Assembly (NCBI GenBank): GCA_051313645.2
Contig: JBNRSN020000019.1
Location: 47,182,001-47,246,000, forward strand
Length of the DNA: 64,000 nucleotides
DNA from: Centroscyllium fabricii
Lineage: Eukaryota
Direction of reading: 5' to 3'
Shown: positions 12,614-56,333 of the stretch, piece after piece
Layout: each line of letters starts with the position of its first letter
How positions within the stretch are numbered: position 1 is the first letter of the stretch
Notes under the pieces: generated by a model
Told to the model about the DNA's origin: nothing
The model's database searches: none
What the model saw: the letters and a program-made list of their open reading frames with translations, nothing else
Translations under genes and position numbers: made by a program

Positions 12614-14530
12614 GAAACATAGAAACATAGAAGATAGGAGCAGGATTGGCCATTCGGCCCCTCGTGCCTGCTCCACCATTCAATGAGATCATGGCTGATC
12701 ATCCAAACTCAGTACCCTGTCCCTGCCTTCTCCCCATATCCCTTGATCCCTCTAGCCTTAAGAAATACATCCAGCTACTTCTTGAATATATTCAATGAAC
12801 TAGCCTCCACCACCCTCTGTGGCAGAGAATGCCACAGGTTCACCACTCTCTGGGTGAAGAAATTCCTCCTCATCTCTGTCCTAAATGAGTTACCCCTTAT
12901 CCTTAGAGTATGACCCCTGGTTCTGGACTCTCCGATCATCGGGAACACTCTTCCTGCATCAAGTTTGTCCAGCCCAGTTAGAATTTTATACGTTTCGATG
13001 AGATCCCCTCTCGATCTTCTAAATTCCAGAGAGTACAAACCCAGTCTCCTCTGTCTCCTCAAACGTCATTCCTGCCATCCCAGGTATCAGCCTGGTGAAT
13101 CTTCTCTGCATTTCCTCCATGGTAAGAACGTCCTTTCTTAGATAAGGAGACCAAAATTGCACACCGTACTCAAGGTGTGGTCTCACCAAGGCCCTGTACA
13201 ACTGCAGCAAGACCTCCCTGTTCCTGTACTCGAACCCTTTCGCCATGAAGGCCAACATACCATTTGCCGCCTTAACCGCCTGCTGCACCTGCATGCTCAC
13301 CTTCAGTGACTGGTGCACAAGGACACCCAGGTCTCGTTGTACTTCCCCTTCTCCCAATCTATTGCCATTCAGATAATAGTCGGCATTTCTGTTTTTGCCC
13401 CCAAAGTGAATAACCTTGCATTTATCCACATTATACTGCATCTGCCACGTCTCAGCCCACTCGCCCAACCTGTCCAAATCATCCTGGAGCTTCGTGGTAT
13501 CCTCCTCCACAGCACACACGCCCTCCCAGCTTTGTGTCATCTGCAAACTTGTAGACATTACATTTAGTTCCCTTTTCTAAATCATTAATGTATATTGTGA
13601 ATGGCTGGGGTCCCAGGACCGATCCCTGCGGTACCCCACTAGTCTCCGCCTGCCACTCGGAAAAAGACCCATTTACTCTCTGCTTTCTGTCCGCCAACCA
13701 ATTCTCAATCCAAGTCAATAACTTGCCCCCAATCGCATGTGCCCTAACTTTACATGCTAATCTCTTGTGCTGGACCTTGTCAAACGCCTTCTGAAAGTCT
13801 AAGTACACCACATCTACTGGTTCTCCCTGATCAATTTTCCCAGTTACATCCTCAAAAAATTCCAGTAGATTAGTCAAGCCCGATTTACCTTTTGTAAATC
13901 CATGTTGACTTTGTCCGATCCTGCCACTGATTTTCAAGTGCTCAGCTGTTACATCCTTTATTATGGACTCCAGCATCTTCCCCACTACTGATGTCAGGCT
14001 TACTGGTCTGTAATTTCCCGCTTTCTCCCTACCACCCTTTTTGAATAGTGAGGAAACATTAGCCACCCTCCAATCCATGGGTACAATTCCAGATTCCATC
14101 GATTGTTGGAAGATAATCAGTAATGCATCCACTATTTCTAGGGCTACTTTCTTAAGTACCCTAGAATGTAGATTATCAGGCCTGGGGATTTATCAGCCTT
14201 TAATCCCATCAATTTCCCTAACACCATTTCCCTGCAAATACAGATTTCTTTCAGTTCCTCCCTTTCATCAAACCTTATGTTCCCCAATATCTCGGGGAGA
14301 TTACTTGTGTCCTCCTTTGTGAAGACAGAACCAAAATATGCATTTAATTGGTCTGCCATTTCTTTGTTCCCCATTATCACTTCCCCTGCTTCTGACTGTA
14401 AGGGACCTACACTTGATTTAGCTAATCTTTTTCTCTTCACATATCTATAAAAGCTCTTAGTCAGTTTTTATATTCCCTGCAAGCTTACTTTCATATTCTA
14501 TTTTCCCCTTCTTAATTAATTCCTTTGTTG
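12614..14530 (-). mobile_element. 5'-truncated CR1 LINE with frameshifts
   Basis: Minus-strand ORFs 14144-14440, 13479-14132, 13019-13558 and 12775-13062 give consecutive RT pieces (NYRPVSLTS, DFQKAFDK, GVPQGSVLGP, FADD). Tail gaaacatagaaacatag at 12614. Confidence 0.93.
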
Positions 14531-14559
14531 AGGACTAACTATTAAACAGTAGGAGCTCT

Positions 14560-16055
14560 TCATATGAGGCACCCTTGGCCTCAATTTTTGATGCCTCACT
14601 AACAGCAGGGGTGGTGCCGGGAGATTGGCGGGAGGCAAATGTGGTCCCACTATTCAAGAAAGGGTCCAGGGAGGAACCGGGAAACTACAGACCGGTCAGC
14701 CTGACCTCGGTGGTTGGTAAAATAATGGAGAGGGTCCTGAGGGATAGGGTGTACAGGCACTTAGAGGAGATTAAATTCATCAGGAACAGCCAGCACGGAT
14801 TTGTGAAGGGAAAATCGTGTCTGACGAACCTGATTGAATTTTTCGAGGAAGTGACCAGGAGTGTGGATGAGGGAAAGGCAGTGGATGTGATCTATATGGA
14901 TTTCAGCAAGGCCTTTGATAAGGTTCCTCATGGAAGACTGATGAGGAAAGTAAGGGGGTGTGGGGTAAATGGGAGAATAGCAAATTGGATAGAGAACTGG
15001 CTAGCGGAGAGGAGACAGAGGGTAGTAGTGGATGGAAGTTACTCCAGTTGGAGACCGGTCACCAGCGGGGTTCCGCAGGGATCGGTGCTGGGTCCACTAC
15101 TATTTGCTATCTTCATAAATGACTTGGAGGAGGGAGCAGAGGGTTGGGTCAGTAAGTTTGCGGACGATACCAAAATAGGAGGAGAAGTGGATGAGGAAGA
15201 AGGGGGGGAGAGACTACAGAGGGACATTGAGGGAATGCAGGAATGGGCTGAGAGATGGCAGATGGAGTTCAATGCTGAGAAGTGCGAGGTGATGCACTTT
15301 GGCAGCAGGAACGGAAGGAGGGAATATAGGCTAAACGGGAAAGTACTAAAGGAAACAGAAGAACAGAGGGATCTGGGGGTGTATGTTCATAGGTCACTGA
15401 AGGCGGCCACTCAGGTGGACAGGGCGGCAAGGAAGGCCTATGGGATACTGGCCTTCATCAACAGGGGCCTGGAGTTTAGGGACAGGGAGGTGTTGATAAG
15501 GCTGTATACAGCGCTGGTGCGACCACACTTGGAGTACTGCGTTCAGTTCTGGGCACCTAGGTACAAGAAGGATGTGGAGACTCTGGAGAGAGTGCAGAGG
15601 AGATTTACGAGGATGCTGCCGGGGATGGGGGGGAGGACGTACGAGGAGAGACTGAGGGAACTGGGGCTGTTCTCTCTGGAGAGAAGAAGGGCCAGGGGAG
15701 ACCTGATAGAGGTATTCAAGATGATAAAGGGTATTGACCAGGTGGACGTACAAAGACTATTTCCAAGGATGAGGGAGACGGGCACGAGAGGACATTCGTA
15801 TAAAATACAGGGAGGGAAGTTCAGAAGAGATGGAAGAGGGGGGTTCTTCACGCAAAGGGTCGTGAGTGAGTGGAATAGGCTGCCAGCACAGATTGTAGAG
15901 GCGAGCAGCCTGGAGGCGTTCAAGAGAAAACTGGACATTTATATGGGGGCGGAAGGGTATTAGATAGGGAGGCAGGAGGGAGGGGGCGGCATGACTTGTG
16001 GGCCGAAAGGCCTGTTCAGTGCCGTAATTGTCTATTGTCTATTGTCTATTGTCTA
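14560..16055 (+). mobile_element. Young 5'-truncated CR1 LINE with uninterrupted 462-aa RT ORF (14575-15963)
   Basis: Complete RT motifs without stops. Short 3' UTR ending in (ATTGTCT)n at ~16027-16055. Confidence 0.95.
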
Positions 16056-20852: not shown

Positions 20853-23800
20853 GGGGAGGCAGTGGCGTAGTGGTTATATCACTAGACTAGTAAGCCAGAG
20901 GCTCCGTCAAATGCTCTGAGGATATGGGTTCAAATCCCACCACGGCAGCTGGTGGAATTTCAATTTAATTCTGGAATTAAATGTTAGTCTTAGTAATGGC
21001 GACCATGATACCATTGTCGATTGTTGCAAAAACCCATCTGGTTCACTAATGTCCTTCAGGGAAGGAAATCTGCCGTCCTTACCTGGTCTGGCCCACATGT
21101 GACTCCAGACCCACAGCAATGTGGTTGACTCTTAATGCCCTCTGAAATGGCCTAGCAAGCCACTCAGTTGTAAACAACCGCTACGAAAAACAAGAATAAA
21201 ACCAGACGGACCACCCAGCATCGACCTCTGCACCGGAAACGACAACGTCAACGGCAAACCCGGCCCTGTCGACGCTGCAAAGTCCTCCTCACAAACATCT
21301 GGGGACTTGTGCCAAAATTGGGAGAGCTATCCCACAGACTAGTCAAGCAACAGCCTGACATAGTCATACTCACAGAATCATACCTTACAGCCAATGCCCC
21401 AGACACCACCATCACCATTCCTGGGTATGTCCTGTCCCACCGGCAGGACAGATCCACCAGAGGTGGTGGCACCGTGGTATGCAGTTGGGAGGAAGTAGCC
21501 CTGGGAGTCCTCAACATTGACTCCGGACCCCATGAGGTCTCATGGCATCAAGTCAGACATGGGCAAGGAAACCTCCTGCTAATTACCACCTACTGCCCTC
21601 CCTCAGCTGATGAATCAGTACTCCTCCATGTTGAACATCAATTGGAAGAAGCACTGAGAGTAGCAAGGGCCCAAAATGTCCTCTGGGTGGGGGACTTCAA
21701 TGTCCATCACCAAGAGTGGCTCAATGGCACCACAACTGACCGAGCTGGCCGAGTCCTAAAGGACATAGCTGCCAGACTGGGTCTGCGACAGGTGGTGAGG
21801 GAACCAACAAGAGGGAAACACCTACTTGATCTCGTCCTCACCAATCTACCTGTTGCATTGGTGGAAGTGACCACCGCACAGTCCTTGTGGAGACGAAGTC
21901 CCATCTTCATGTTGATGATACCCTCCGCCGTGTTGTGTGGCACTACCACCGTGCTAAATGGGACAGATTTCGAACAGATCTGGCAACTCAAAACTGGGCA
22001 TCCATGAGGCGCTGTGGGCCATCAGCAGCAGCAGAATTGTATTCAACCACAATCTGTAACCTCATGGCTCGGCATATCCCTCACTCTACCATTACCATCA
22101 AGCTGGGAGATCAACCCTGGTTTAACGAAGAGTGCAGGAGAGCATGCCAGGTACAGCACCAAGCATACCGAAAAATGAGGTCAACCTGGTGAGGCTACAA
22201 CACAGGACTACTTGCATGCCAAACAACAGAAGCAACATGCGATAGACAGAGCTAGGCGATCTCCCAACCATCGGATCAAATCAAAGCTCTGCAGTCCTGC
22301 CACATCAAGTCATGAGTGGTGGTGGACAATTAAACAGTTAACAGGAGGAAGAGGCTCCAAAAATATCCCCATCCTCAATGATGGTGGAGCCCAGCACGTG
22401 AATGCAAAAGACAAGGCTGAAGCATTTGCAACTATCTTCAGCCAGAAATGCCGAGTGGATGATCTATCTCGGCCTCCTCCTGAGGTCCCCAGCATCACAG
22501 ATGCCAGTCTTCAGCCCATTCAATTCACTCCACATGATGTCAAGAAACGGCTGAAGACACTGGATACTGCAAAGGCTATGTATGGGCCCTGACACCATTC
22601 CGGCAATAGTACTGAAGACTTGTGCTCCAGAACTAGCTGCACCCCAAGCCAAGCTATTCCAGTACAGCTACAACACTGGCATCTACCCGGCAATGTGGAA
22701 AATTGCCCAAGTATGTCCTGTTGACAACAAGCAGGACAAATCCGACCCGGCCAATTACCGTCCCATCAGTCTACTCTCAATCATCAGCAAAGTGATGGAA
22801 GGTGTCGTCGACAGTGCTATCAAGTGGCACTTACTCAGCAATAACCTGCTAACTGATGCCCAGTTTGGGTTCCGCCAGGGCCACTCATTTCTGACCTCAT
22901 TACAGCCTTAGTCCAAACATGGGTAAAAGAGCTGAACTCAGGAGGTGAGGTGAGAGTGACTGCCCTTGACATCAAGGCAGCATTTGATCGAGTGTGGCAT
23001 CAAGGAGCCCTGGCAAAGCTGAAGTCAATGGGAATCAAGGGGGAAACTCTCCATTGGTTGGAATCATACCTAGCACAAAGGAAGTTGGCTGTGGTTGTTG
23101 GCGGTCATTCATCAACCACAGGACATAAATGCAGAAGTTCCTCAGGGCAGTGTCCTAGGCCCAACCATCTTCAGCTGTTTCATCAATGACCTTCCCTCCA
23201 TCATAAGGTCAGAAGTGGGGATGTTCGCTGATGATTGCACACTGTTCAGCACTATTCGAGACACGTCAGATACTGACTCAGTCCATGTCCATATGCAGCA
23301 AGACCTGGACAACATTCAGAATTGGGCTGACAAGTGGCAAGTAACATTCGCACCACACAAGTGCCAGGCAATGACCATCTCCAACAAGCGAGGCTCTAAC
23401 CATCTCCCCTTGACATTCAATGGCATTATCATTGCTGAATCCCCCACTATCAACATCCTGGGCGTTACCATTGATCGGAAACTGAACTGGACCAGCCATA
23501 TAAATACTGTGGCTACAAGAGCAGGCCAGAGGCTGGGAATTCTGTGGCGAGTGTCTCTCCTCCTGACTCCCCAAAGCCTTTCCACCATCTACAAGGCACA
23601 AGTCAGGAGTGTGATGGAATAATCTCCACTTGCCTGGATGAGTGCAGCTCCAACAATACTCAAGAAGCTCGACACCATTCAGGATAAAGTAGGCTGCTTG
23701 ATTGGCACTCCATCCACCACCTTCAACATTAACTCCCTCCACCACCGGCGCACTGTGGCTGCAGTGTGTACCATCTACAAGATGCACTGCAGCAACTCGC

Positions 23801-24077
23801 CAAAGCTCCTTCAACAGCACCTTCCAAACCCGCGACCTCTACCACTTAGAAGGACAAGGTCAGCAGACGCATGGGAACACCACCACCTTCAAGTTCCCCT
23901 CCAAGCCACACACCATCCTGACTTAGAAGTATATCACCGATCCTTCATCATCACTGGGTCAAACTCCTGGAGCTCAAGAAGGCAGCTCACCACCACCTTC
24001 TCGAGGGCAATTAGGGATGGGCAATAAATGCTGGCCTTGCCAGCGTTGTCCACATCCCATAAACTAATTTTAAAAAA
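20853..24077 (+). mobile_element. Near full-length CR1/L2-group LINE with a single frameshifted APE-RT ORF, preceded by a tRNA-like head
   Basis: A box 20863-20873 and B box 20927-20937. APE motifs (PDIVILTES, GDFNVHH, LDLVLTN) from ~21290. RT (NYRPISLL, DIKAAFDRVWH, PQGSVLGP, MFADD). Tail GGGCAATTAGGGATGGGCAATAAATGCTGGCC plus an A-rich end. Confidence 0.88.
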
Positions 24078-24956
24078 TTGATGGAGAAAATGGAATATGA
24101 GGGTAAACTAGCAAGAGGCAAAACAGATTGCAGGAGTTTCTGTAGTTATGAGAAAAGGAAGAGATTAACAAAAGTAAACATGGGTCCCTTACCGGCAGAG
24201 ACGGGAGCAATTATAATGGGGAATAAGGAAATGGCAAAAGCATGAAACAAATACTTTGCATCTGTCTTCACGGAAGAAGATACAAAAAACCATTCCGGGA
24301 ATAGTGGGGAACTTTGGTCCAGTGAGGATGAGGAACTTAATGTAATTAGTATTAGTAAAGAAATAGTACTGGAGAAATTAATGGGAATAAAAGCCGACAA
24401 ATCCCCTGAACCTGATTGCCTACATCGTAGGGTTTTAACAGTTGGCTGCAGAGATAGTGGATGCATTAGTTCTGATCGTCCAGAATTCCCTAGATTCTAG
24501 AACACTTCCTGCTGATTGGAAGGTAGCAGATGTTACCCCACTATTCAAGAAAAGAGGGAGTGAGAAAACCAGGAATTATAGACTAGTTAGCCTGACATCA
24601 GCAGTGGGGAAAATGCTTGAATCTGTTATTAGGCACTAAAAAATTCATAATGTGACTGGGCAGGGTCAACACGGATTTATGAAAGGGAAGTAGTGTTTGA
24701 CAAATCTATTAGGAGGGAGACCTCAGGCTACAGGACAATATCGATGGGTTGGTCAGATGGGCAGAACAGTGGCAAATGGAATTTAACCCTGAAAAGTGTG
24801 AGGTGATGCATTTTGGGAGGATGAACAAGGCAAGGGAATATACAATGAATGGTAGAGTTGCAAAATTCCAGGAATTTTTAAGAGGAAACTTTCCATGGGA
24901 ATTTTTGGGAATTGAGTTTTTTTGCACGCTGATGGTTTTTGTCTCTGACCCGTATA

Positions 24957-25530
24957 CAGGTTGAGCACCATTAATCCGGCACAGGCGGGACCAGGCCCGT
25001 GCCGGGAAAGCGAAAATCCCGAACGATTGAAGCTTCAGCGAGCGCATGTGCAGACCACTCAAAATGGCCGCTGCGAAAGTCCGGTGGCCATTTTGAGTGG
25101 TCTGCGCATGCGCTTGTTGGGGAGGCCCGGCATAATTCGGAGAGACTTGCAGAGCCCCGGCTGGGGCTGGCTCGCGGAGGTTCGTAGAGCCCCGGCTGGG
25201 GGGCGGCTCGCCTTGCAGAGCCCCGACTCGGGCGGCTCGCGGAGGCTTGGGGCGAATCCCAGAGCTCCGGCTGGGGACAGCTCGCAGAGCCCCGGCTCGG
25301 GGCAACTCGCAGAGCCCCGGCTCGGGGTGTTTCACAGAGGCTCGGGATCGGCTCGGCCATTGTGAATGATCTGCGCATGCGCTCGCCGTTCGGCGGCGCA
25401 TGCGCAGATCATTCGCCAAAGCATCAATCGCCGCGGCCATTTTGCACATGCGCAGGGCAGTCAGGGCAATTTGTGCCGGACGTTCGAAGTTGCTGGCTTT
25501 TCGGGTAACTGATTAACGGTGTTCAACCTG
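24957..25530. mobile_element. Tigger/pogo-like MITE, CAGGTTGAGCACC family, copy 1 (inside the hAT)
   Basis: TIRs CAGGTTGAGCACCATTAATC / GATTAACGGTGTTCAACCTG with TA TSD. GC-rich interior with AGAGCCCCGGCT repeats. Confidence 0.88.
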
Positions 25531-25679: not shown

Positions 25680-27540
25680 GCCTGTAATTTGTCCTTGTGT
25701 TGTCCCTTTGAGTCTTCTACACATGAGTCTTCTACTCATCATTGCACCTCCTGATTCTCTGACTCTGGCTCTGACGTGTCCATTTCCTCCTCTGTGTCAC
25801 TGTCTAGCTGTGTGGTGGACACTCCTGTATTTGGCTCAATAAGTTGTAGGTTCGCCCGGATAGCCACCAGTTTCTCCACTCTCGTTTGTCAGCCTGTTTC
25901 GCACCTTTGTATGCGTATTCCCAAAAAGTGACCAATTTCGTTCAGAGGCAGCTGATGAAGGTGGGATTTGGAGTATCACCGATGCAATAGGTGACAGGGC
26001 CTCAGATGCACAAAGTCCCTTCCACCAGGTATGTGCACTGATATGCTTGCATGATTCCCATATCCCGTCCCCATTCCAAAGACCTTGCTTGGTAGAGAAC
26101 TTTGGCAGACTTCCCAGAACTTTGCCCACATCCAGATTGAGATGGTGAGAGGGTAGAAATCACACTAAGCGCTGCTGATCGGTTCTCCAGAAAGTATTGG
26201 TCTCCCAACATGCTTTGGGTCCAGCATGTATGCTGCAGCATGAATCGGCTTGACACAAAATTCTTGACGCGTCTGTATGAATTGAACAATTGCCTTCTCT
26301 GCTTTGAGCAGCAGGGGTGTGGGTAGGTCAATGCTGATTTGTTCTTTTAAATCAGTAAAAAGCCTGAGAACATCTGACAAGACGGCATCATCTCCTTCAA
26401 TCTGAGCAATTGGAGATGCTACTGGTGAGAGTAGTTAAAGGCTGCTAACCACTCTCTCCCAAAACACATCATCCAGCAGTATTTTCTTGATGGTGGTTTC
26501 CATATCCCCAGACTGGGATATTGCCATTTCTTGCAGCGACTCCTTACCCTCCAGAAGGCTGCTGTACATTATGACAACACCACCCCATCTAGTGTTGTTG
26601 GGCAGCTTCAGTGTGGTGTTCTTGTTCTTTGTCATTTGCTTGGAGTTGTTGGTTGCTGCAACTACCTGTTTTCCCCTGACATACTTAACAACTTGCTTGG
26701 CTCTCTTGTACAGTGCTTTCATGGTTCTCAAACCCATGATGTCCTTAAGGAGCAGGTAAAGCCCATGAGCTGCGCACCAAATAGACGTAATATGAGGGTA
26801 GGCCTCCTCCACCTGAGCCCAAGCAGCCTTCATATTCGCAGCATTGTCAGTAACTACTGCAAAGACCTTTTGTGAGCCAAGATCATTGATGACCGCTTTC
26901 AGCTCATCAGCAATGTATGTGCCTGTGTGTCTGTTGTCCTTCATGTCTGTGCTCTTGAAGAACACTGGGAGAGGAGTGGAGACGATGTAGTTTATGATGC
27001 CCTCCCCTCGTACATTTGACCACCCATCTGATATAACTGCAACACAGTCTGCCATCGCTGTCGTTTCTTTGAGCTTTCCTTGGACTCTGTTGTACTCAGC
27101 CTCCAGCAAATAAGTAGACAAAGCATGTCTGGTGGGAGTACAGTATGCAGGGCGAATAACATTGAAAAATCTCTTCCAGTACACATTGGCTGTGAGCATG
27201 AGGGTTGAGCCTGTTGCATATACAGCTCGAGCAAGGCACTCATCTGCATTCTTCTGGCTATGGTTATCCATTGTATCAAAGAACCTTCCAAGTGGGCCAG
27301 GGGTTGCTGATGATAAGGAGCCTAATGCTGAATGAGAACCATCATCATCTTGAATGGAAGAAGAGGAACTCTGGGCTGACTGCTGTGAGCTTTGAGTGAA
27401 GTTGTTGCATTTGGATAAATGCTGCTGCATCTTTGTGGCATTCTTTACATATGGCTTTGTACACTGTTTGCACATGTACTGTTTCCATCTTTAATGCCTG
27501 GGGTAAAATGCTTCCACACATCCGAGGGTAAACGTGGCAT
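25680..27540 (-). pseudogene. hAT transposase (BED finger, DUF659-like catalytic region, C-terminal dimerization domain) with stop and frameshifts
   Basis: MPRLPSDVWKHF / CKQC..HLSKC, SDGWSN, VTDNAANM, CAAH, TRWGG, PSSAASERNWS. In-frame stop at 26435-26437 and several frameshifts. 3' end approximate. Confidence 0.9.
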
Positions 27541-29853
27541 TGTTCTATGCAGAGAAATAAGGGCATTCATCTCTGTGTCGAACTGCGGTCGATCAGCACG
27601 ATTGCAACAGGGTGAGTACATTTTTGCTGATGCTCCATGTGATGGAAGCATGACCTGTACACACACGACGCTACATGACCAATAGTGTATTATTTTGTAA
27701 ATTTTAAATTGAAGGACAACAGAGTTCAACAAGTAACTGGTTTATTTGGTGTAAAATCTGATTTACTTACTGCATCATCACAACATCAGCAGAAAACAAA
27801 ATGACTTCCCTCAGGACCCCTAACCTGGATCTTAAAAAAAACTATAGCAGTCTTACAGATGCCTGCAGGCCAATCACAATTCGATATGCTAATATTACAA
27901 ATAGAGGGAGCTAATCGCTCATTCCACTCATCCAACCACTCATCCAACCAATCAGGACACATTTGTTCACAGTCACACACAAAACGGGTAATTATTAAAA
28001 CGAGCCAAGTAAGAAGATAAACATATATTGATTAAGAAATTCTTTAATAATTAAGATTCCATCTCTGTTCGTCATTTTAAGAGAGGACCTGTGGAGGAAA
28101 AAAAGAAAAATACAAAAAAAACATTATGCTAGCATGTGCTTTTTTGGGCAAAATTCCCAAGCTAAACTTCCCGTGGAAAAATTCCGGAAATTTACCGGAA
28201 ACTTTCCACCCCTTTGCAACCCTAATGAATGGTAAGATCCTAGGAAAGAGAGAGGATCAGAGGGACCTTGGTGTGCATGTACATAGATCCCTGAAGGCAG
28301 CAGGACAGGTGGATAAGGTGGTTAAAAAGGCATATGGGATACTTGCCTTCATTAGCCGAGGCATAGAATATAAGAGCAGGGAGGTTATGATGGAGCTGTA
28401 CAAAACGCTAGTTAGGCCACAGCTGGAGTACTGTGTGCAGTTCTGGTTGCTGCTCTATAGGAAGGATGTGATTACTTTGGAGAGGGTGCAGAGGAGATTC
28501 ACCAGGATGTTACCTGGGCTGGAGCACTTCAGCTATGAAGAAAGACTGGACAGGCTGGGGTTGTTTTCCTTGGAGCAGAGAAGGCCGATGACCTGATTGA
28601 GGTGTACAAAATTATGAGGGGCACAGATAGGGTAGATAGAAAGGAACTTTTTCCCTCAGCAGAGGGGTCAATAACCAGGGGGCATAGATTCAAGGTAAGG
28701 GGCAGGAGGTTTAGAGGGAATTTCCCGGATTTTTTTCCCAAATTGGACCTGGGTTTTTATCTGGTTTTTCGCCTCTCCCAGGAGATCACATGGTTCTTTG
28801 GGTGGGAGAAGGGTGATAGTGGTATGAAGGTTAGGGTAGGATCAGCAATGATCTTGATGGGTGAGGGGGCGGGCTTGGGGGGCCGATTGGCCTACTCCTG
28901 CTCCTATTTCTTGTGTTCTTGTGTTCTTATGTTCAGCCATGAACGTATTGAATGGCGGTGCAGGCTCGACGGACCGAATGGTCTACTCCTGCACCTATTT
29001 TCTATGTTTCTAAGAACTTTTTCACCCAGAGGGTTGTTGGAATCTGGAACTCACTGCCTGAAAGGGTGGCAGAGGCAGGAACCCTCAACATTCAAGAAGC
29101 ATTTAGATGAGCACTTGAAATGCCATAGCATACAAGGCTACAGACCACGTCTGGAAAATGGGATTAGAATAGACTGGGCTTAATGGATGGCATGGACCAC
29201 ATGGGCCGAAGGGCCTCTTTCTGTACTGTATAACTCTATGACTCTAGTTTTTTGAGATTGTAACTAGCAGGGGATAAGGGGGGGAACTAGTGGATGTAGT
29301 GTACTTGGATTTTCAAAAAGCATTCGATGAGGTGCCACACAAGAGGTTATTGCACAAATTTGGGGTTAATGTATTCGCATGGATTGAGGATTGGTTAACA
29401 GACAGAAAACAGTAGGAATAAATGGGTCATTTTCTCGTTGGCAAGGATCCGTGCTTGGGCCTGAGCTATTTACAATCTATATCAATGACTTCACTGAGGT
29501 GACCGAGTGTAATGTATGCTGATCGTAAAAAAAGCTAGGTGGGAAAGTAAGTAGTAAGGAGCATGCAAAGAGGCTGCAAAGGGATACAGACAGGTTAAGT
29601 GAGTGGGCAAGAACATGGCAGATGGAGAAATGCGAAGTTATCCACATTGGTAGGAAAAATAGAAAAGCAGAATATTTTTTAAATGGTGAAAGATTGGAAA
29701 ATGTTGCTATTTGCTAAACAAAGAGATCTGGGTGCCCTTGTCACTGAAAGTTCACATGCAGGTTCAGTAAGTAATTAGAAAAACAAATGGTATGTTGGCC
29801 TTTATTACAAAAGGATTGGAGTATAAGAGTGAAGAAGTCTTACTGCAATTATA

Positions 29854-35060: not shown

Positions 35061-35663
35061 CAGGTTGAGCACCGTTAATTCGGCACGGGCGGGATTAGGC
35101 CTGCGCCGGTATACCGAAAAATCGGGAGAATGAAGTCGGCCAGTGCGCGCACCATTCAAAATGGCACATGCGCGCAATATTGGAAATGGCCCCCGGAAGT
35201 TTTAATCACCTGCAGTGTAGCTGCAACCACCCAGAACCCGCCGTGCAAAGATCCCTCGGCTCGGCTCAACAGGCAGACAGGATGGGACTCTTTCTCTTTC
35301 CCCCCCCCCACCCCACCCCACCCCACCCCGGCGCACAACCATAAATTAAGGCCCAGGCTGCAGGCCCAGCACAGCACTAACAAGTTAGTAGAGCGCGGTC
35401 CCGGTCCCGTGCAGCGCTGAGAGGGAGAGGCCAGAGCGAGCGACAGATCCTTACCGTTCGGCGCACGAATGAGGCAAAGGTCGGTCCCGTCTCTGGCGGC
35501 CGTTTTGAATGATCTGCGCATGCATTCGGTGGCGCACGCGCAGATCATTCGCCGAAGCATCGACCGCGGCAGCCATTTTGTGCATGCGCAGGACAGTCAG
35601 GGCAATTTATGCCGGACTGAAGTTGCCGGCTTTTTGGTTACCGGATTAGCGGTGCTCAACCTG
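35061..35663. mobile_element. Tigger/pogo-like MITE, CAGGTTGAGCACC family, copy 2
   Basis: TIRs CAGGTTGAGCACCGTTAATTCGG / CCGGATTAGCGGTGCTCAACCTG with TA TSD. Confidence 0.88.
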
Positions 35664-36202
35664 TATTTAAATATTGATGCACTACTGCAACTGGTCCAAG
35701 CTCTATCCTGGTCAACTAGGGCTGATGAAGGCAATTGTTAATGTATCCATCATTGTAACTTGAACAACTTGGGAAAAGTTATTGAGTACTGGGTGGCATC
35801 GCGGACTTCAGAAAGTGCATTAAACTCCGAGAAAGTGTCATTCCTCATTGTACTTGGAGTTAATTTTTCAAAAAAAGACTTGAAATTTGAAGCAAACTGC
35901 CTCCAATTATTTCTCCTGATTATCACTATGTCTAGTCTTGACTGTCAGAACTGCCTATGTTATGCTGACAGTTCGAAAATGTAAACATTTTAATTGATAA
36001 TAGCTGTCAGACACAGACATTCACAAGGTGTCTTTCCTCATTTAATTTGTTTGTTCAAATAAACAAACCAGTCCAATTTTGAAAGCTCAAAGTAAGCAAT
36101 CATAATTTGAATATACTCAACCACATGATCTGAATTTACTTTTGAAATGATCTAATTTACAAATGTATTTTTCATTTGTTTTCTCCCCTTTTCCCACTCC
36201 AG

Positions 36203-38486: not shown

Positions 38487-39704
38487 GTAAGTGTTACTTT
38501 TCTCTCGATCTAGTTATAAAATTTGTCTGACAGGTTCAATGTACACTGAGGTAAGTAAGCCTGTTTCCAGCAGTTAAGTGAAATTTCACAAATGTTAAAA
38601 CATGTAATATTAACACTGATCTGTGAATAGTCACCTGTCTGATAGAGCAGGGAATGCTTTCCAGTCTTGAGATTCACAGGCTTGTATCTTATACGATATA
38701 TTGAAAAGTGCAACAAATCATTTTTTTATTACCTTTTTAAAGGAGAAACTTTCTACTTTTTTTTCCTTTCCTGAACAAATATGCCGGAATACAGTTCCAA
38801 CTGCAATAAATGACCAATTTTCATTGATTTGCCATGGGAGAGAGCATCATCGTCAAGCCCAATCCTGTCCCTTGATTCACAAAGATGTAGTTATGACCAG
38901 CAATGCCGATTGATAATCCAGAATGATTTTTCTCTCCCTAACTTGGGGGCAATGCAGTCAATTGCAATGTCCTTACTGCTGCTCCAGCTAAGATTAGTAA
39001 AACACGCACAGATTTAACCTGGTCTGTACAGCTCAGTACCACAGCCAGTAAAACATCACAGGTCATTCTAGTGGTCTTTACTGCAGAAATCTGATGTTTA
39101 TTTATCATTGGTCCTGCTGAATGGTCCACTTGGTTTTGTAATCGTAATTTTGTGCAGCCAACTCCGCAGTAGTTTGGTGGCATTGCGAATGCGTGACCAA
39201 ATATTTTACCCTTAAGCTGCCAATGAATATATGAAAATATATTGAGGTAATTTACTGTTAAAACATTCCTCATTCCCCTGTAAATGTATGATCTGGTATG
39301 GTGCTAAGCTGTATGGACCAAGTTATTCTCCGTGCACTGAATTTAGCTGATCTTGGCTGGAACCGCAGTTGGCTACAGTGCACCTGGGTTGGGGAAGAAA
39401 GAAATCATTCTTTGTTGTCATTCCTGATTTTCATGTGGTCATAAGTGTGTCTTTGTGAATGAGCCCCCAACATCTGAAGAATGACCACATTTTGCTGCTG
39501 GAACATTTAAGGCCATACATTAGGATGTCTTTGAGAGAAAGACAAAACTGAGAGAAATAAAATTCAGTCCATCTGCACCTGCTAAGTATTACTTGGATTT
39601 AAAAATGTACTTTTTTGTGTTTCTCTGGAGCTAAATACTCTTCACACAGATTTTTGCTGCAGCAGTTTGGCTAATTATAATTAACAAATTACGATAATGT
39701 AGTG

Positions 39705-39975
39705 GAACATAGGAGCAGGAGCTCCTCGAACCCACTCCACCATTCAGTCAGCTCAATACTAATCTGTATCTCAACTCCAATCCGTACCTCAACTCCATTT
39801 ATCCAAAAATGGAGGAGGAGGGGGGGGAAGAAAGAGTTCCAGATCTCCACTACCCTTTGTGTGGGGGAAAAAATGCTTCCTAATTTCACTCCTAACTGGC
39901 CTAGCTGTAATTTTAAGATTATTCCCCTTGTTCTGCATTTACCTCAAGAGAAAATAGTTTCTCTCTATCCCATTT
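39705..39975 (-). mobile_element. Degenerate CR1 3' end
   Basis: FSPTQRVVEIWNS remnant and a CR1-like tail on the minus strand. Confidence 0.55.
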
Positions 39976-40257
39976 AAAACAGGCGGTTGCTTACATTGGC
40001 CAAAACACGACCATTTGCATTAATGCCAGTTTCCAAATTGCTGGTTATAGCTGTGCTTTCTCACTTGTGATATTGATTGTGTGAGTGAAGTGCACATGAA
40101 AAATTATGCATGTTTTTTAAACTATATTTATATTTAATAAAAAATAAAACCATACACAATAATCCCAGAAATTTAGTTCCCTAATTGGGTGTTTGGGTTG
40201 TTTAAATGGTTGTTTGTGATCGTTAAGATTTGTTTGGGTTTTTTCACTCCTGTCTGA

Positions 40258-40475
40258 ATTTTGCTGAGATGCTGTACCTGGTAATAGTTTGTTTCTGATT
40301 AACGGAACCTGCTCCCTGCTCCTCCAGTTTCCTGATGACCACTGCCAGGGTGAGGTTGGAGCTGCAGATCTCTGGGTGCTTGGTCAGGTCTTGGAGTCCG
40401 TCAGTAAGGAGGCTTGTTCAGGTAGCGGTTCAAGAACTTGCGGACGCTGTTGAACGACAACAACATTCTTGTAGC
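40258..40475 (-). pseudogene. Decayed fragment resembling the Crypton-derived (DUF3504-type) domain of the KCTD1 long isoform
   Basis: Minus strand: LSFNSVRKFLNRYLNKPPY*RT, frameshift, then DLTKHPEICSSNLTLAVVIRKLEEQGAGSVNQKQTITR. Compare recalled KCTD1 SLISIRSSLNRYLNEPPYCRTLDLTKDPELRSANLTLAAVIRKLEEQGAGPVVQKQAITR. Confidence 0.72.
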
Positions 40476-40671
40476 GCTACCACGTTATACTTGCCATCGT
40501 GTATAATGTGCAAATGTGTTCACACAAACATGCCCGCTATAAGTGATGGGGACTGTACATACCCTATCGATATCCTTTAACATTTTAGTGAAAATACCAT
40601 AAAATATGAAGCATGTAAAATCAACATATATTTTACAAAATAGTACAGTATCCCAAACTTATCTGTTTCAG

Positions 40672-40874
40672 ACATTTGAAAGAAATTCAGGAGTTGCAAT
40701 CACGGCAGAAGCAGGAAATCGAGGAACTCTATATAAAATTGGGTAAGGCACCACCTGCTGTAATAATTCCACCTGCGGCACCCCTGTCTGGACGTCGCAG
40801 ACGACCCACCAAAGGAAAAAGCAGCAAATCCAGTCGGAGCAGTTCCCAAGGACAAAAGAGTCCTTTACTTTCTG
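40672..40874 (+). CDS. WNK1: WNK1 C-terminal coiled-coil exon (HLKEIQELQSRQKQEIEELY..GRRRRPTK), phase 2-1
   Basis: tgtttcag| acceptor and G|gtaggt donor. Near-identical to human WNK1. Confidence 0.96.
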
Positions 40875-40959
40875 GTAGGTGATGACTAGCATCCATTGTG
40901 ATAGCTTTTTGTACTGTGATGTTTTCTGTTGATGTCATGTAGCTGCACTCTAATTACAG

Positions 40960-41154
40960 GGTCCATAACTGCTCAGAGTACTGCTTCGGTGTTGATACCA
41001 CAGCAGATGCTGTTACCGCCCTCGAGTACTCATGAATTCACTGTTTCTGGACAAGGTCAATTGCTGAAACCCTTATCATCCAGTGAAAATTTGTACTCTG
41101 CTTACACCAGTGAAGGGGTGATTTCTGGACAAAGCGTCTCTGGTACCGGACAAG
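40960..41154 (+). CDS. WNK1: WNK1 coding exon (..LKPLSSSENLYSAYTSEG..GQ-G), phase 1-1
   Basis: aattacag| acceptor after an 85-nt intron and G|gtaaga donor. Matches LKPSPSSDNLYSAFTSDG. Confidence 0.92.
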
Positions 41155-42469
41155 GTAAGAATCTTGCTAACTTGTGTAAAGTTTCTGGGTTACAAATTCT
41201 GTCCGTTTTACAATCGCTACCTCCATTGTAGAAGTGCACATATGCAAGTTTAATACATGCATAGTTGCTCAGAAGGCGCATTTTGTGTGTGGACATTCAC
41301 TGATTTTGAGGGAAAGTCCGTACAGCCCATCAATGAATAGTGTATTATTGGTCTGCACGGAGAGGTCCTCCAATCCATGCCAGAGTTATAACAGTGGACC
41401 TGATGGAAGTGCCACCAACCGAGCACATGCACATTTATTACTACTGGCATCCAGTAAAATCTCCTCCCAAGAAGGGTTTCACTGCCTCCAATGATCTTCC
41501 CATTGGAAGTAATGCTGTCGGGTAGAGTATCAATGAATTAAAAGTCTGATCCTCAAACCTAATTTCTGTGCTGCACACATTAACTTTTCATAACCGCTTA
41601 CTATACTGTTTGGAAAGTGCACAAATATCCATGACTCCTCCATTCATCTTTCACTAATAAAGCAGTCCTGATTCTGTGCTTTATAAATTAAGCCGGAGAA
41701 GATTTTTGTGTGGAGACTTCTGTTTAAATAAGGCTGCCTCTGCTTTTGAGTCTCCTCCGTCCACTTGAGAGTTACATTGTTCCTCTTGTAAAAGATGGAA
41801 GAACCCCTTTCATAAGTCCTTGAGCAGTGATGTCTACATATCTCTGTGAACATTGCCCTAAAGTATGGGCCATGAGACAAAAGGTTTGGTTGTGTTACTG
41901 TTTTGTGATGCTGATGTATTGTACGGTTGTACCAATTTACGTTTAATAAAGGTACCTACACTGATGATTGTTCTACAGAAAACCATTATCGCTTGCAAGT
42001 GGACAGTGTGTCAGAATGAAAAATGGTCATTACTTGTGTTGAGAATTTTTAAATTTTCAGTTGTGCTGTGAATTGGGATAAGACGTGGTGAACTTGTCAT
42101 GTAGCAAATTAGCTGGACTGTGGAATGGCCATGGCACAGAAGTCAAACAGGTTTTAGTAGAATACAGATCAAATCTCCTTTTGTTCTTTTTTCAGAATGA
42201 CAGTTAATATCTGGAAGCTGGTCATTCATTGGCATTTAGTTTCAGGGATGGAGGAACTTGAGTGAAGGAGGAAGAAACTATGGATTTTTAACATGCATGG
42301 GGAAAAAACCCACAAAGCTCAGGAAACATTTAATTTAAGGTGGAAGAAGCAAAGAGGCCTGTGATGCCCAACTGCAAAAAGTGCTTTCTATTTTACCGTG
42401 ATTTTCCAATCAACTGGGTTAGTATAGGGATTAGAGCACGTATTTTCAGCAATCGTCCATACCCTTATT

Positions 42470-44765: not shown

Positions 44766-45317
44766 CCTTTGGAGAGGTTGAAGAAGGATTTGTGAAAATG
44801 AAACTAATATCCACTCCAGATCACAAGGGGATGCTATTGTTGCATCCCTGGGTTATACTAACATGCAAGTAGATGTAGCACAGTGTAAATCGACCCCCAT
44901 TAAAAATAAAACGTTCAGGCTAGAGCAACTGACTCGAAGATACCTACAGCAAACCTTAATTTGTCACAAAAGTTAAAATCACATTATATATACCATTAGA
45001 AGCCAGCGGTCATTAATAAGTGTGTGTATGTCTGCGTACATATATTTGTATGCCCATAACAACTACATACAAAATTTGTCCAACAGGCAAGATGCCATTT
45101 ATTGGTTCTGCTAGGAGATGGAATAGTTTCTTTCATAGTTTTTTCTCCATATATTGGTAACTTTCATTGTTTCAGTTTTTGTGAATTGTCTTGGTTGTGT
45201 GAAATTCAACTTGTGGAACAATTTGAAGTGATATTTTGATTGATTCAGTTAGCACTGGTATATTTAAAAAAATCTTTGAGGCAAATCTAGGTATATGTTC
45301 CTGCATTCGTGCATGTA

Positions 45318-45834
45318 CAGGTTGTGCACCATTAATCCACCACGGGCGGGACCAGGCCCGTGCCGGGAAACAGAAAAAACCGGGAGAACGAGGTTGGACA
45401 CTGCGCATGCGCACCATTCAAAATGGCCACGCGCATGCGCACAACATTGGTATTGGCTGGCGCGCGCATGCGCAGATCGGACCCGGGTCCGCCTTCCCTC
45501 TCCATCGCCTTTCGGGTTGCTGCTGCCGCCGAGCCGGACTCAGGCTGACAGCTGTTGCCTAGTGACTGTCCGCCTCAGTCACGGGGCTCAGCTGTCGAGA
45601 AAATAACCGGCGGCTGTATTGAATTATCTGCGCATGCGCTAACCGTCCGGCGACGCATGCGCAGATCATTCAAAACACCCGGCAGCTGTTTTGAATGATC
45701 TGCGCATGCGCTGGGCGCATGCGCAGATCATTCGCTGAAGCCACGATGGCGGCGGCCATCTTGTGCATGCGCAGTGCAGTCGGGGCAATTTGTGCTGGCA
45801 GACTGAAGCTGCCGGCTATTCGGGACACAACCTG
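45318..45834. mobile_element. Tigger/pogo-like MITE, CAGGTTG family, copy 3
   Basis: CAGGTTGTGCACCATTAATCC left TIR, shortened right TIR CACAACCTG, TA TSD. Two internal GAATGATCTGCGCATGCGC-type hairpins. Confidence 0.85.
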
Positions 45835-45872
45835 TATATGAAAATATATATATATATTGATTGCTGTTATTG

Positions 45873-46160
45873 TGTAGCATAGCCACTAGGGGGAGACACG
45901 CTGGTCTCCCCAGGATGTTAGAATCCACATTCCAGAGTTGGTCCCGCCCCTGTTTCCCCATTGGGTAGTTGGATCAACAGTTCCGGTTCCTGATTGGTCT
46001 TGCGGGCTGTCAGTCAAAAGCCCCATGATGCTTTGCGGTTTCTCGCCTTTTGTAAGTTAGTCGTGTTTGGATTGAAACGAATAAAGACCTGTTAAAGCTT
46101 GCTCCGCGATCTTTCGACGTTTTATTGATTTTAAAGAGTGGGGAACTGCCGTTCCCTACA
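45873..46160 (+). mobile_element. Probable solo LTR
   Basis: TGTAG...CTACA termini, 288 bp, GC box, two reverse CCAAT boxes, AATAAA at 46080. No clean TSD seen. Confidence 0.55.
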
Positions 46161-46168
46161 ATGCTATA

Positions 46169-46563
46169 CAGGTTGAGCACCGTTAATTTGGCACGGTCAG
46201 GACCAGGGCCGTGCCGAATTTTTGAAAAATCCGAATGATTGAAGTTCGCCGAGCGTCAGCACAGACCATTCAAAATGGCCACCACAAAATTTTGAATGGT
46301 CTGTGCATGCGCTCGCCGAGAGGCCCGGGCATGCGCAGCGAATCGCAGCGGTCATATTGCGCATGCGCAGGCCAATTGGGGAGAGACCCGGGCATGCGCA
46401 GCCACGCATGGTGGCCATTTTGCGCAGGGCAGTCGGAGAGGCCTGGGCATGCGCAGCCAAGCGCGGTGGCCATTTTGTGCATGCACGCACCAGTCGGCCA
46501 GATTCGTGCCAGACGTTTGAGGTTGCTGGACAAACGGTGTCCGGATTAACGGTGCTCAACCTG
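46169..46563. mobile_element. Tigger/pogo-like MITE, CAGGTTGAGCACC family, copy 4
   Basis: TIRs CAGGTTGAGCACCGTTAATTTGG / CCGGATTAACGGTGCTCAACCTG with TA TSD. Confidence 0.88.
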
Positions 46564-47672
46564 TATATAAAGTGCTTTTACGGTTACGGTGCCTATGTCC
46601 CTCTGCTGTAATAAAATAACCATGTTTTACACAGATAACTGGGTACTTCCATTTTTTTCCTGTTTGAACAAGAAACAAAAATGAATTTTAGAAGTTTCTT
46701 GATTATCTCCTGTTCAAGTTCTAAACGATCTGTTTTCTGTCTCCGAGCATTCCATTTCCACAGACTGATGGTATCTATATTTCTGGTTTATGCAGGCCAG
46801 ATGTCTGGGCAAGTGAAAAGCAGCTCAGTCATTGCCTCACAAAAGTTAAGAATGTCACAAACAAGCTGGTGATTGTAGCTGTTGTCAACTAATTTTGTCC
46901 CTTTGAGAATCTGGTCTACTATTGTATTTTGAGTGTTTCCATATGCAGACTGATGGAGGCTCAAATAATTGCCATTGGTTTTGTGTGTGAATGTGCAGTG
47001 CAGCCTTTCTGTACAGTAGCGATCCCAGTGTTTACTGAACATTTCTGCCAGCTATAAAATCAGGACCATCATTGTGGGCTCTGGGGATTTCTCTGCAGGG
47101 AGTCGGACTCTGATGGATGTTAGCCGTTAGGCCGCTGCTGTACACCCCCAGGCGTTGCTAGAAACCTGGAAACAGATTGTTCATACACTCACGGCTAGGA
47201 ATAGTGTAATAGGACACCTGAGGTGGTAAAGAAAGTTGTCACATCCAGTTTAAAAACATTGAAGGAAAAAGCTTTTTTGCAGCTACTAAATGTTGCAGTA
47301 TTAGATCTCTTTAGTAGCCTCAAAAAAAATGGTAAATGGTGAAAACAATTAGTGGAAAATAACCAAACCAGATTGAACTTGAAAGTTTAATCAGAAGAAT
47401 CTGAAGCACGGATAGTAACAGGGATGATGACTGTTAAAATAAATTCCTATAATCAGCATCTCATTTTCCAGGGCAACAAAAAAAATAGGTAAACATTTCT
47501 CAAACTTTTTTAAAAGGTGTAGCCTGGGTGTGCGTACAAAATAGTTACTGTTTCGTTAAATGCTTGAGGATGAGAGGTTTTGTATTTGATGTGAAGTACT
47601 CCCTCAACTCTTAAAAACTAACATTCTGACTCTAGTTGTCTGTTTTCCTCCTTTTCTGTTACTCTGTCACAG

Positions 47673-55527: not shown

Positions 55528-56333
55528 TACAGTTTAATGTGGATAAATGTGAGGTTATCCACTTTGGTGGCAAAAACAGGAAGGCAGATTATTATCTGAA
55601 CGGCAATAGATAGGGAAAGGGGGAAGTACAATGAGACCTGGGTGTCCTTGTGCACCAGTCGCTGAAGGTAAGCAGCAGGCGGTGAAGAAGGTAAATGGTA
55701 TGTTGGCCTTCATAGCGAGAGGGTTTGAGTACAGGAACAAGGATGTCTTGCTGCAGTTGTGCAGGGCCTGGGTGAGAGCACACCTTGAGTATTGTGTGCC
55801 GTTTCGGTCGCCTTATCTGAGGAAGGATGTTCTTGCCATGGAAGGAGTGCAGCGAAGATTCACCAGACCTGGGATGGTGGAATGACGTATGAAGAGAGAT
55901 TGGATCGATTAGGCTTGTATTGGCTGTTGCTGGAGTTTAGTAGAATGAGGGGATCTCATTGAAACTTATAAAATTCTAACAGGACGAGACAGACAAGATG
56001 CAGGAAGGATGTTCCCGATTGCGGGGGAGTCCAGAACCAGGGGTCACAGTCGAAGGATAAGGGGTAAGCCATTTAGGACTGAGATGAGGAGGAATTTCTT
56101 CACCCAGAGAGTAGTGAACCTGTGGAATTCTCTACCACACAAGGCAGTTGAGGCCAATTCATTAAATATGTTCAAGAAGGAGTTCGATATAGTTCTCAAG
56201 GCTGAAGGGATATGGGGAGAAAGCAGGGACAGGGTACTGAATTTGGATGATCAGCCACGATCTCATTAAATGGCGGAGCAGGCTCGAGGGGCTGAATGGC
56301 CTACTCCTGCTCCTATCTTCTATGTTTCTATGA
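55528..56333 (+). mobile_element. 5'-truncated CR1 LINE 3' end
   Basis: QFNVDKCEVIHFG..FFTQRVVNLWNSLP. Tail ctatcttctatgtttctatg. Same subfamily as 12614-14530. Confidence 0.92.

Follow-up and report, generated by a model that had tools for sequence, protein, structure and literature searches.

A piece of DNA lying antisense within an intron of WNK1 in the shark Centroscyllium fabricii is, with little room for doubt, a decayed copy of an inverted-repeat element of about 685 bp, likely a non-autonomous element of Tc1/mariner type (pogo/Tigger-like), whose cargo is the last part of a KCTD1 exon together with the beginning of the adjoining intron, and which likely spread in trans to dozens or hundreds of sites. 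The piece is part of a stretch of 64,000 nucleotides (contig JBNRSN020000019.1, positions 47,182,001 to 47,246,000), here called the window. Copies of the element show an arm–exon–intron–arm layout with terminal inverted repeats (TIRs) and TA flanks; they bear the exon at no fewer than 44 places and decay neutrally, and their single donor has no arms. The family is probably an old multicopy Pack-TIR that captured genomic KCTD1 DNA. We favor this reading because arms are missing from the donor, the exon beyond the captured piece occurs once in the genome, and sister families pair the same arms with other interiors. Going by sequence comparison, a Crypton-derived host exon appears to have been re-mobilised by an unrelated transposon.

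The features of the window copy, which spans 40555 to about 39971 on the minus strand, are listed in Table 1. The minus strand reads ..LNRYLNKPPY (40433–40404), then a stop codon (40403–40401) and RT; after one extra base DLTKHPEI..KQTITR (40390–40277) follows in another frame. Both the antisense KCTD1-like sequence and the frameshift had been noticed in a first-pass annotation, and both are real. At the DNA level the piece is 77% identical to the KCTD1 gene of this genome over 205 bp (E = 1e-38). A Pfam search with two pieces of the window did not match DUF3504 and gave a single weak unrelated match; PF12012 models the C-terminal part of DUF3504, which lies outside the captured cargo. The piece had been described as bare, with no target-site duplication (TSD), but there is a TA-flanked TIR at 40555 and a repeat of about 685 bp around the piece. 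Contig depth climbs from about 8–20 to as much as 84,000–232,000 in bins 39769–39969, and the high-copy repeat located there likely clipped the 3′ end of the window copy.

Table 1. Features of the window copy and its immediate surroundings (window coordinates)
Feature	Position	Strand	Evidence
TA at 5′ end, likely target-site duplication	40556..40557	.	Window sequence; TA enrichment at copy ends
5′ terminal inverted repeat, begins CAGTCCCC	40532..40555	-	Copy alignment; 18-mer found 199 times in genome
Remainder of MITE 5′ arm, common to cargo-less relatives	40462..40531	-	Profile columns up to 108; absent from KCTD1 locus
Captured 3′ end of first DUF3504 exon of KCTD1 long isoform, 60 codons	40278..40461	-	77% identity to C1155:301758536-301758718
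Breaks in captured exon: stop; one-base insertion	40403-40401; near 40395	-	Window reading
Captured start of KCTD1 intron, GT donor at 40277-40276	40064..40277	-	Matches C1155:301758719-741 and 301759591-714
MITE 3′ arm with internal deletions; last ~25 bp including 3′ TIR lost	39971..40063	-	Profile and alignment
High-copy repeat adjoining the element's 3′ end, outside the element	39702..39969	.	Contig depth
WNK1 coding exon, 116 bp downstream of the element	40672..40873	+	Protein matches and spliced contig of run X12

The family unit of about 685 bp consists of an arm of about 100 bp, 183 bp of KCTD1 exon, about 230 bp of KCTD1 intron including the splice donor, and an arm of about 170 bp. 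A 341-bp query from the window gave 43 matches including itself, the 42 other places being 69–87% identical (40 of 49 candidates scored). When copies are aligned (leaving out L012, a 99% segmental duplicate of L011), their boundaries coincide on both sides, with inverted repeats of about 24 bp that begin CAGTCCCC next to TA, and their flanks are unrelated (19 of 20 loci). An exact 18-mer composed of TA and the TIR occurs 199 times in the genome, compared with 0 occurrences of the reversed control. Where ends could be scored, TA flanks the element on its 5′ side in 20 of 28 cases and on its 3′ side in 15 of 25, the background being 5.7%; among 12 copies with both ends scored it stands at both in 4, most others having CA or TG, and no empty site was seen. 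The TA is probably a true target-site duplication.

We analysed 52 distinct cargo-bearing places, 44 of them with exon sequence (at least 30 exon bases); these counts omit the segmental twins L012 and L086 as well as L058 and L065 (intron only), and both are lower bounds, as the genome searches scored the best candidates only. Both TIRs could be scored in 12 of the 52 copies by a strict test and in 18 by a looser one. Among 30 TIR matches fetched, none had the exon and 2 had the intron part, and exact 18-mers number 3 in the 44 exon-bearing copies. Rough scaling would put the elements with this TIR at about 3,000 and the exon-bearing ones at no more than about 300.

The interior of the element derives from an identifiable host locus, KCTD1 at C1155:301758536-301759714. 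The long-isoform KCTD1 gene is single in this genome (C1155:301.76 Mb), and the donor locus (C1155:301.758 Mb, L010) is an open GC-rich frame with 92% identity to ray and shark KCTD1 isoform X1. KCTD15, also offered in the first-pass annotation, was rejected as a source, DUF3504 being missing from KCTD15 according to the portion of PMC3212892 that treats it. A basking-shark protein aligns to the KCTD1 locus as two blocks 3.3 kb apart, and the gap corresponds to a 3,334-bp GT..AG intron after ..AITR (G000:C1155:301758719-301762052, L041); the BTB exons lie outside the 80 kb fetched. The partial chimaera KCTD1 in supplement 6 of PMC3212892 ends at the same AITR residue, suggesting that the intron may be old; the intron itself is a prediction from the protein-to-genome alignment, the GT..AG ends and the chimaera end point. 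In the present-day gene, the middle of the captured intron is a minisatellite, followed by a stretch of about 1.1 kb with a LINE-like piece.

Arms and cargo are sharply delimited. Compared with a profile of 18 copies, the KCTD1 locus matches only columns 109–393 and 370–521, and cargo-less TIR relatives match only columns 3–97 and about 523–692; the cargo is thus flanked by arms of one TIR element (the window copy being without its 3′ TIR). The left breakpoint is the same in all copies that retain it, with no visible microhomology, and the 57 amino acids upstream of it match only the KCTD1 gene (1 match of 3 candidates). On the other side, homology to KCTD1 crosses the splice donor from exon into intron. 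Two copies extend further. One at C734:47.17 Mb (L126) holds about 180 bp more intron, joined directly and skipping the insertions of the present gene (E = 4e-7, no match for the reversed control), and L013 holds about 40 bp more, taken from beyond the minisatellite and LINE-like stretch and likewise joined directly. L126 (G000:C734:47170302-47175599) spans 5.3 kb; no other copy carries as much KCTD1 intron, its 3′ arm is distant, and it contains nested insertions.

These junctions bear on how the KCTD1 DNA came to be mobile. A retroposed (processed) KCTD1 fragment could have landed in a MITE and been carried along, as the mostly coding 5′ side of the cargo might suggest. However, the exon runs into the donor GT and 230–410 bp of intron instead of the next exon, and the copies have neither an exon–exon junction, nor poly(A), nor a LINE-type TSD; with donor GT and intron kept, they are not intronless retrocopies. 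We regard this origin as highly improbable. Reverse transcription of unspliced pre-mRNA is possible and cannot here be distinguished from DNA capture. Alternatively, the element may have been born at the KCTD1 locus, if a MITE landed inside the exon or next to it and one-ended or end-bypass transposition followed, with the arms later lost from the gene. The intron has since been reshaped by the minisatellite and LINE insertion, and relics of the arms could have been erased. Against this stand the absence of arm sequence at E ≤ 10 within 40 kb around the exon, the position of the left breakpoint inside an exon that is coding and conserved, so that an insertion there would have disrupted the gene, and the occurrence of both arms in normal order in sister families; the chance that the element arose in this way is very slight. 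The donor is not associated with the element, and no segmental duplication links the two.

The first-pass annotation had offered a captured piece of KCTD1 as one option, and this option, together with the recognition of DNA coding for KCTD1 DUF3504, has stood, unlike the retroposed copy, KCTD15 and the mobile Crypton. The last of these readings holds that the piece is a remnant of a Crypton family near the KCTD1 ancestor that was still mobile in cartilaginous fish, and it draws on the multicopy state of the sequence and on the Crypton origin of the DUF3504 of KCTD1, as given in PMC3212892. Copy number had been proposed as the test that could refute it, yet the piece is multicopy and no Crypton, since it was a TIR transposon that made the copies. 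As far as PMC3212892 describes them, Cryptons have no TIRs and carry direct repeats of 4–6 bp, whereas the present element ends in TIRs and TA. The CryptonA layout of short terminal direct repeats without TIRs does not apply, and the cargo, followed as it is by host intron, is neither a tyrosine-recombinase frame with the R-H-R-Y residues nor a deletion derivative of one. Only 60 codons are mobile, and the 57 amino acids upstream are single copy. DUF3504 gave 19 matches (41 of 41 candidates scored) at nine loci, none of them inside an element copy, and no multicopy family. The cargo is identical to KCTD1 in 59 of 60 residues and includes its intron, compared with 40% identity for the nearest Crypton-like frame (C745:25.07 Mb). 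The exon–intron junction within the cargo rules the Crypton reading out, and we give it practically no credence. That nearest frame (L034, G000:C745:25071359-25071769) is a single open frame of 461 amino acids, 40% identical to the KCTD1 exon, with apparent recombinase H-x-x-R, H and Y motifs; it is likely the ATF7IP Crypton relic mentioned in the relevant sections of PMC3212892 and PMC9004415.

The history of the captured DNA can be read from substitution patterns. The family majority and KCTD1 are separated by 18 silent codons and 1 replacement codon, and third positions hold 17 of the 20 base differences (p = 5e-7 by Fisher's exact test). Individual copies differ from the majority by 0.109, 0.142 and 0.131 at codon positions 1, 2 and 3 without CpG (p = 0.018 by the chi-square test), with position 1 lowest and no third-position excess. 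From silent-biased differences between majority and gene combined with even decay of the copies, it follows that the gene stayed under selection while the copies decayed. An unbroken frame is retained in 1 of 44 exon-bearing copies, at 77% amino acid identity. The one residue that separates majority and gene is Cys in the majority, Asn in this gene, and Ser in the six listed ray and shark proteins and in the chimaera; dating the capture by this residue was rejected, Ser being common to chimaera, rays and sharks.

Divergence of the copies from the family majority has a median K2P of 0.19 (0.145 without CpG). The gene and 21 copies that retain 130 exon bases or more form a star-like tree, with 3 nodes of support ≥ 90, and amplification likely came quickly after capture, judging from the aligned copies. 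Some copies have identical deletion ends, at 255–355 in 4 copies and at 262/263–353/356 in 5, which suggests derived subfamilies or repeated microhomology-guided deletion. The GC content of the cargo is 61%.

These results lead us to propose the following scenario. Genomic KCTD1 DNA would have been copied once between two arms, via template switching while a gap was repaired or a fork restarted. As two copies retain longer intron pieces, the founder likely exceeded the present length and was trimmed later. A burst of cut-and-paste transposition may have taken place soon after the capture, because the tree is star-like and nearly all differences between majority and gene are silent. Transposase supplied in trans would have moved the element; we infer both this transposase and the template switch. 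Deletion derivatives may have kept moving or arisen repeatedly, going by the shared internal deletions. The family would then have died, and the window copy would have drifted as neutral intronic DNA antisense to WNK1.

The short TIR beginning CAG and the probable TA target duplication point to a likely Tc1/mariner-type (pogo/Tigger-like) MITE. No autonomous partner with these TIRs was found in the best 30 fetched DDE_1 loci (150 scored of 1715 candidates), and there was no profile match; fetched DDE_1 loci with readable ends begin CAGGAAAC, which is another TIR family. This genome also contains an abundant Tigger-like DDE_1 family of about 2.4 kb (L146-L175), with copies about 90% identical, TIRs beginning CAGGAAAC, and several 558-aa frames of identical length on C967.

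The same arms enclose other interiors. One sister MITE family of about 440 bp is present at no fewer than 107 places (L176-L200, L205-L219, for example C1044:324.565 Mb). Its interior has a conserved section of about 190 bp with splice-like motifs and an antisense frame of about 40 codons. No protein among 7,994 scored candidates and no Pfam family over the cut-off matched this frame, and the 107 genomic matches of the interior included no obvious intact donor gene. Arms or arm relics lie beside 25 sister-interior loci. A third interior (L052) has 4 matches, all beside an arm. In the 440-bp family the interior may represent another cargo, or else the ancestral state. One could speculate further, though we hold it rather doubtful, that an ancient shark "Pack" clan of Tc1/mariner-type MITEs, numbering a few thousand and joining exchangeable interiors to a single arm pair, repeatedly captured host DNA; one member would have re-mobilised the Crypton-derived exon of a neural-crest regulator (from transposon to host gene to unrelated transposon), scattering a splice donor and antisense copies, and the sister family of at least 107 copies would carry a second host exon.

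The neighboring exon had been assigned to WNK1 at first pass, and protein comparison agrees: there were 225 matches, and in the 120 listed every entry is either WNK1 or unnamed. Exon 40672–40873 is 98% identical to catshark and smooth-hound proteins, a tblastn search with the catshark WNK1 protein places twelve pieces along the plus strand of the window, and a spliced contig from run X12 joins 40672–40873 to 40959–41155 at GT..AG. The window copy is antisense within the intron preceding this exon. Three other organisms, B, C and D, have orthologous contigs of about 96% similarity in which the element is linked to WNK1 exons; the insertion therefore predates their split. Paralogous copies raise the depth over the element in these three organisms.

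The window copy might have been exapted, either as an element that acts in WNK1 splicing or as an antisense regulator of long-isoform KCTD1 that WNK1 pre-mRNA would yield, in view of its distance of 116 bp from the WNK1 acceptor and its retention in three other organisms. However, the orthologous pieces differ at 14/324 and 6/161 positions (X5), similar to the upstream intron flank (26/~540 in X5, 29/563 in X10), with no visible constraint. Moreover, the spliced WNK1 contig of X12 starts at 40672 and leaves the element out, and identity to the KCTD1 mRNA is now 77%. We consider exaptation very unlikely. A low-depth X12 contig covers 40277–40609 and may represent DNA or pre-mRNA. There is no sign of function of the window copy.

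As described in PMC8277862 (Tan et al. 2021), animal Pack-TIRs resemble the KCTD1 family in holding a few hundred bp of host DNA between two arms of one TIR element, with an element-free donor on another contig, exonic GC-rich cargo, and multiple copies, probably made by repeated transposition in the KCTD1 family as well. Within what that paper reports, there are 370 young Pack-TIRs (at least 90% identical to the donor) in 100 animal genomes, and the multicopy cases are 4 (3 in frog and 1 in alligator, the example having 3 copies) plus the fly Ssk-FB4 (4 copies); the word "shark" is absent from its main text. The KCTD1 family differs from those elements in its at least 44 exon-bearing copies, in its divergence of about 19%, and in a cargo that is itself a domesticated transposon domain. 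Pogo/Tigger-type MITEs, as portrayed in sections of PMC9219625 and PMC3845634, share with it the TA flanks, the short non-coding element, the star-like burst and a TIR of about 24 bp beginning CAGT. In contrast to such MITEs, its interior is host DNA instead of a deleted transposase gene, a matching transposase was not found in the searches above, and its TIR differs from that of the dominant Tigger-like family in this genome. Plant Pack-MULEs are similar in that one arm pair encloses different interiors in different subfamilies and gene-fragment cargo is amplified (partly after PMC8277862); they belong to another superfamily and their hosts are not animals, and the sister interiors in the shark have no donor among the matches found. 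With the KCTD1 long isoform (KCTD1b) and CryptonA in PMC3212892, the family shares the KCTD1b DUF3504 sequence. Unlike in the description given there, DUF3504 is split by the 3,334-bp intron, and the mobile unit is a TIR element and not a tyrosine-recombinase element.

A published description of the KCTD1-carrying family was not found in a search of the open-access literature. We see the family as a vertebrate Pack-TIR of old age and high copy number, whose donor is known and which gives no indication of function. Multicopy gene capture by TIR transposons has been thought rare in vertebrates, on the 4 young cases that PMC8277862 reports from its 100-genome survey, and the KCTD1 family, which is far older and larger and has an identified donor and sharp breakpoints, documents capture and amplification in sharks. 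Identity filters can miss such captures; under the filter stated in PMC8277862, a family of this age would go unnoticed. The copies further serve as a fossil record of the ancestral shark KCTD1, preserving the intron before the minisatellite and LINE insertions, and they suggest that in cartilaginous fish the DUF3504 exon is interrupted by an intron. Finally, they set an annotation trap, as protein-based repeat annotation would mislabel them as Cryptons and falsely suggest recent Crypton activity in vertebrates. For the human lineage, PMC9004415 suggests that Crypton activity was confined to the time before the gnathostome split, and the shark KCTD1 family is no ground for extending Crypton activity in sharks.

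The origin of the KCTD1 intron itself deserves comment, as DUF3504 is described as confined to one exon in the pertinent section of Kojima & Jurka 2011 (PMC3212892). Both intron junctions read ACCAG|GT, and the start of the intron encodes H-L-R-K-I compared with D-L-R-K-L in the next exon; a post hoc count over 3,332 codon positions gave a single LRK. A DNA-level test for tandem duplication was not significant (11 of 22, with 30 of 273 windows as good). These similarities hint at a possible gain of the intron by tandem duplication at AG|GT in cartilaginous fish, and a vertebrate precedent for intron gain at AGGT appears in the part of PMC3265369 concerned with it.

The WNK1 introns of the window contain further repeats. 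Many reverse-transcriptase-like frames lie at 7539–8483, 13019–15963, 21174–24027, 28081–29183 and 55592–56269 and, judged by look, are likely CR1/L2-type LINE fragments. An open frame of 351 amino acids on the minus strand at 26435–27490, also in a WNK1 intron, contains DUF659 (E = 2e-31), a domain typical of hAT-type transposases. GC-rich repeats with recurring ACGCATGCGCAG-like motifs are found in several introns, at 24709–25512, 35079–35741 and 45227–46611.
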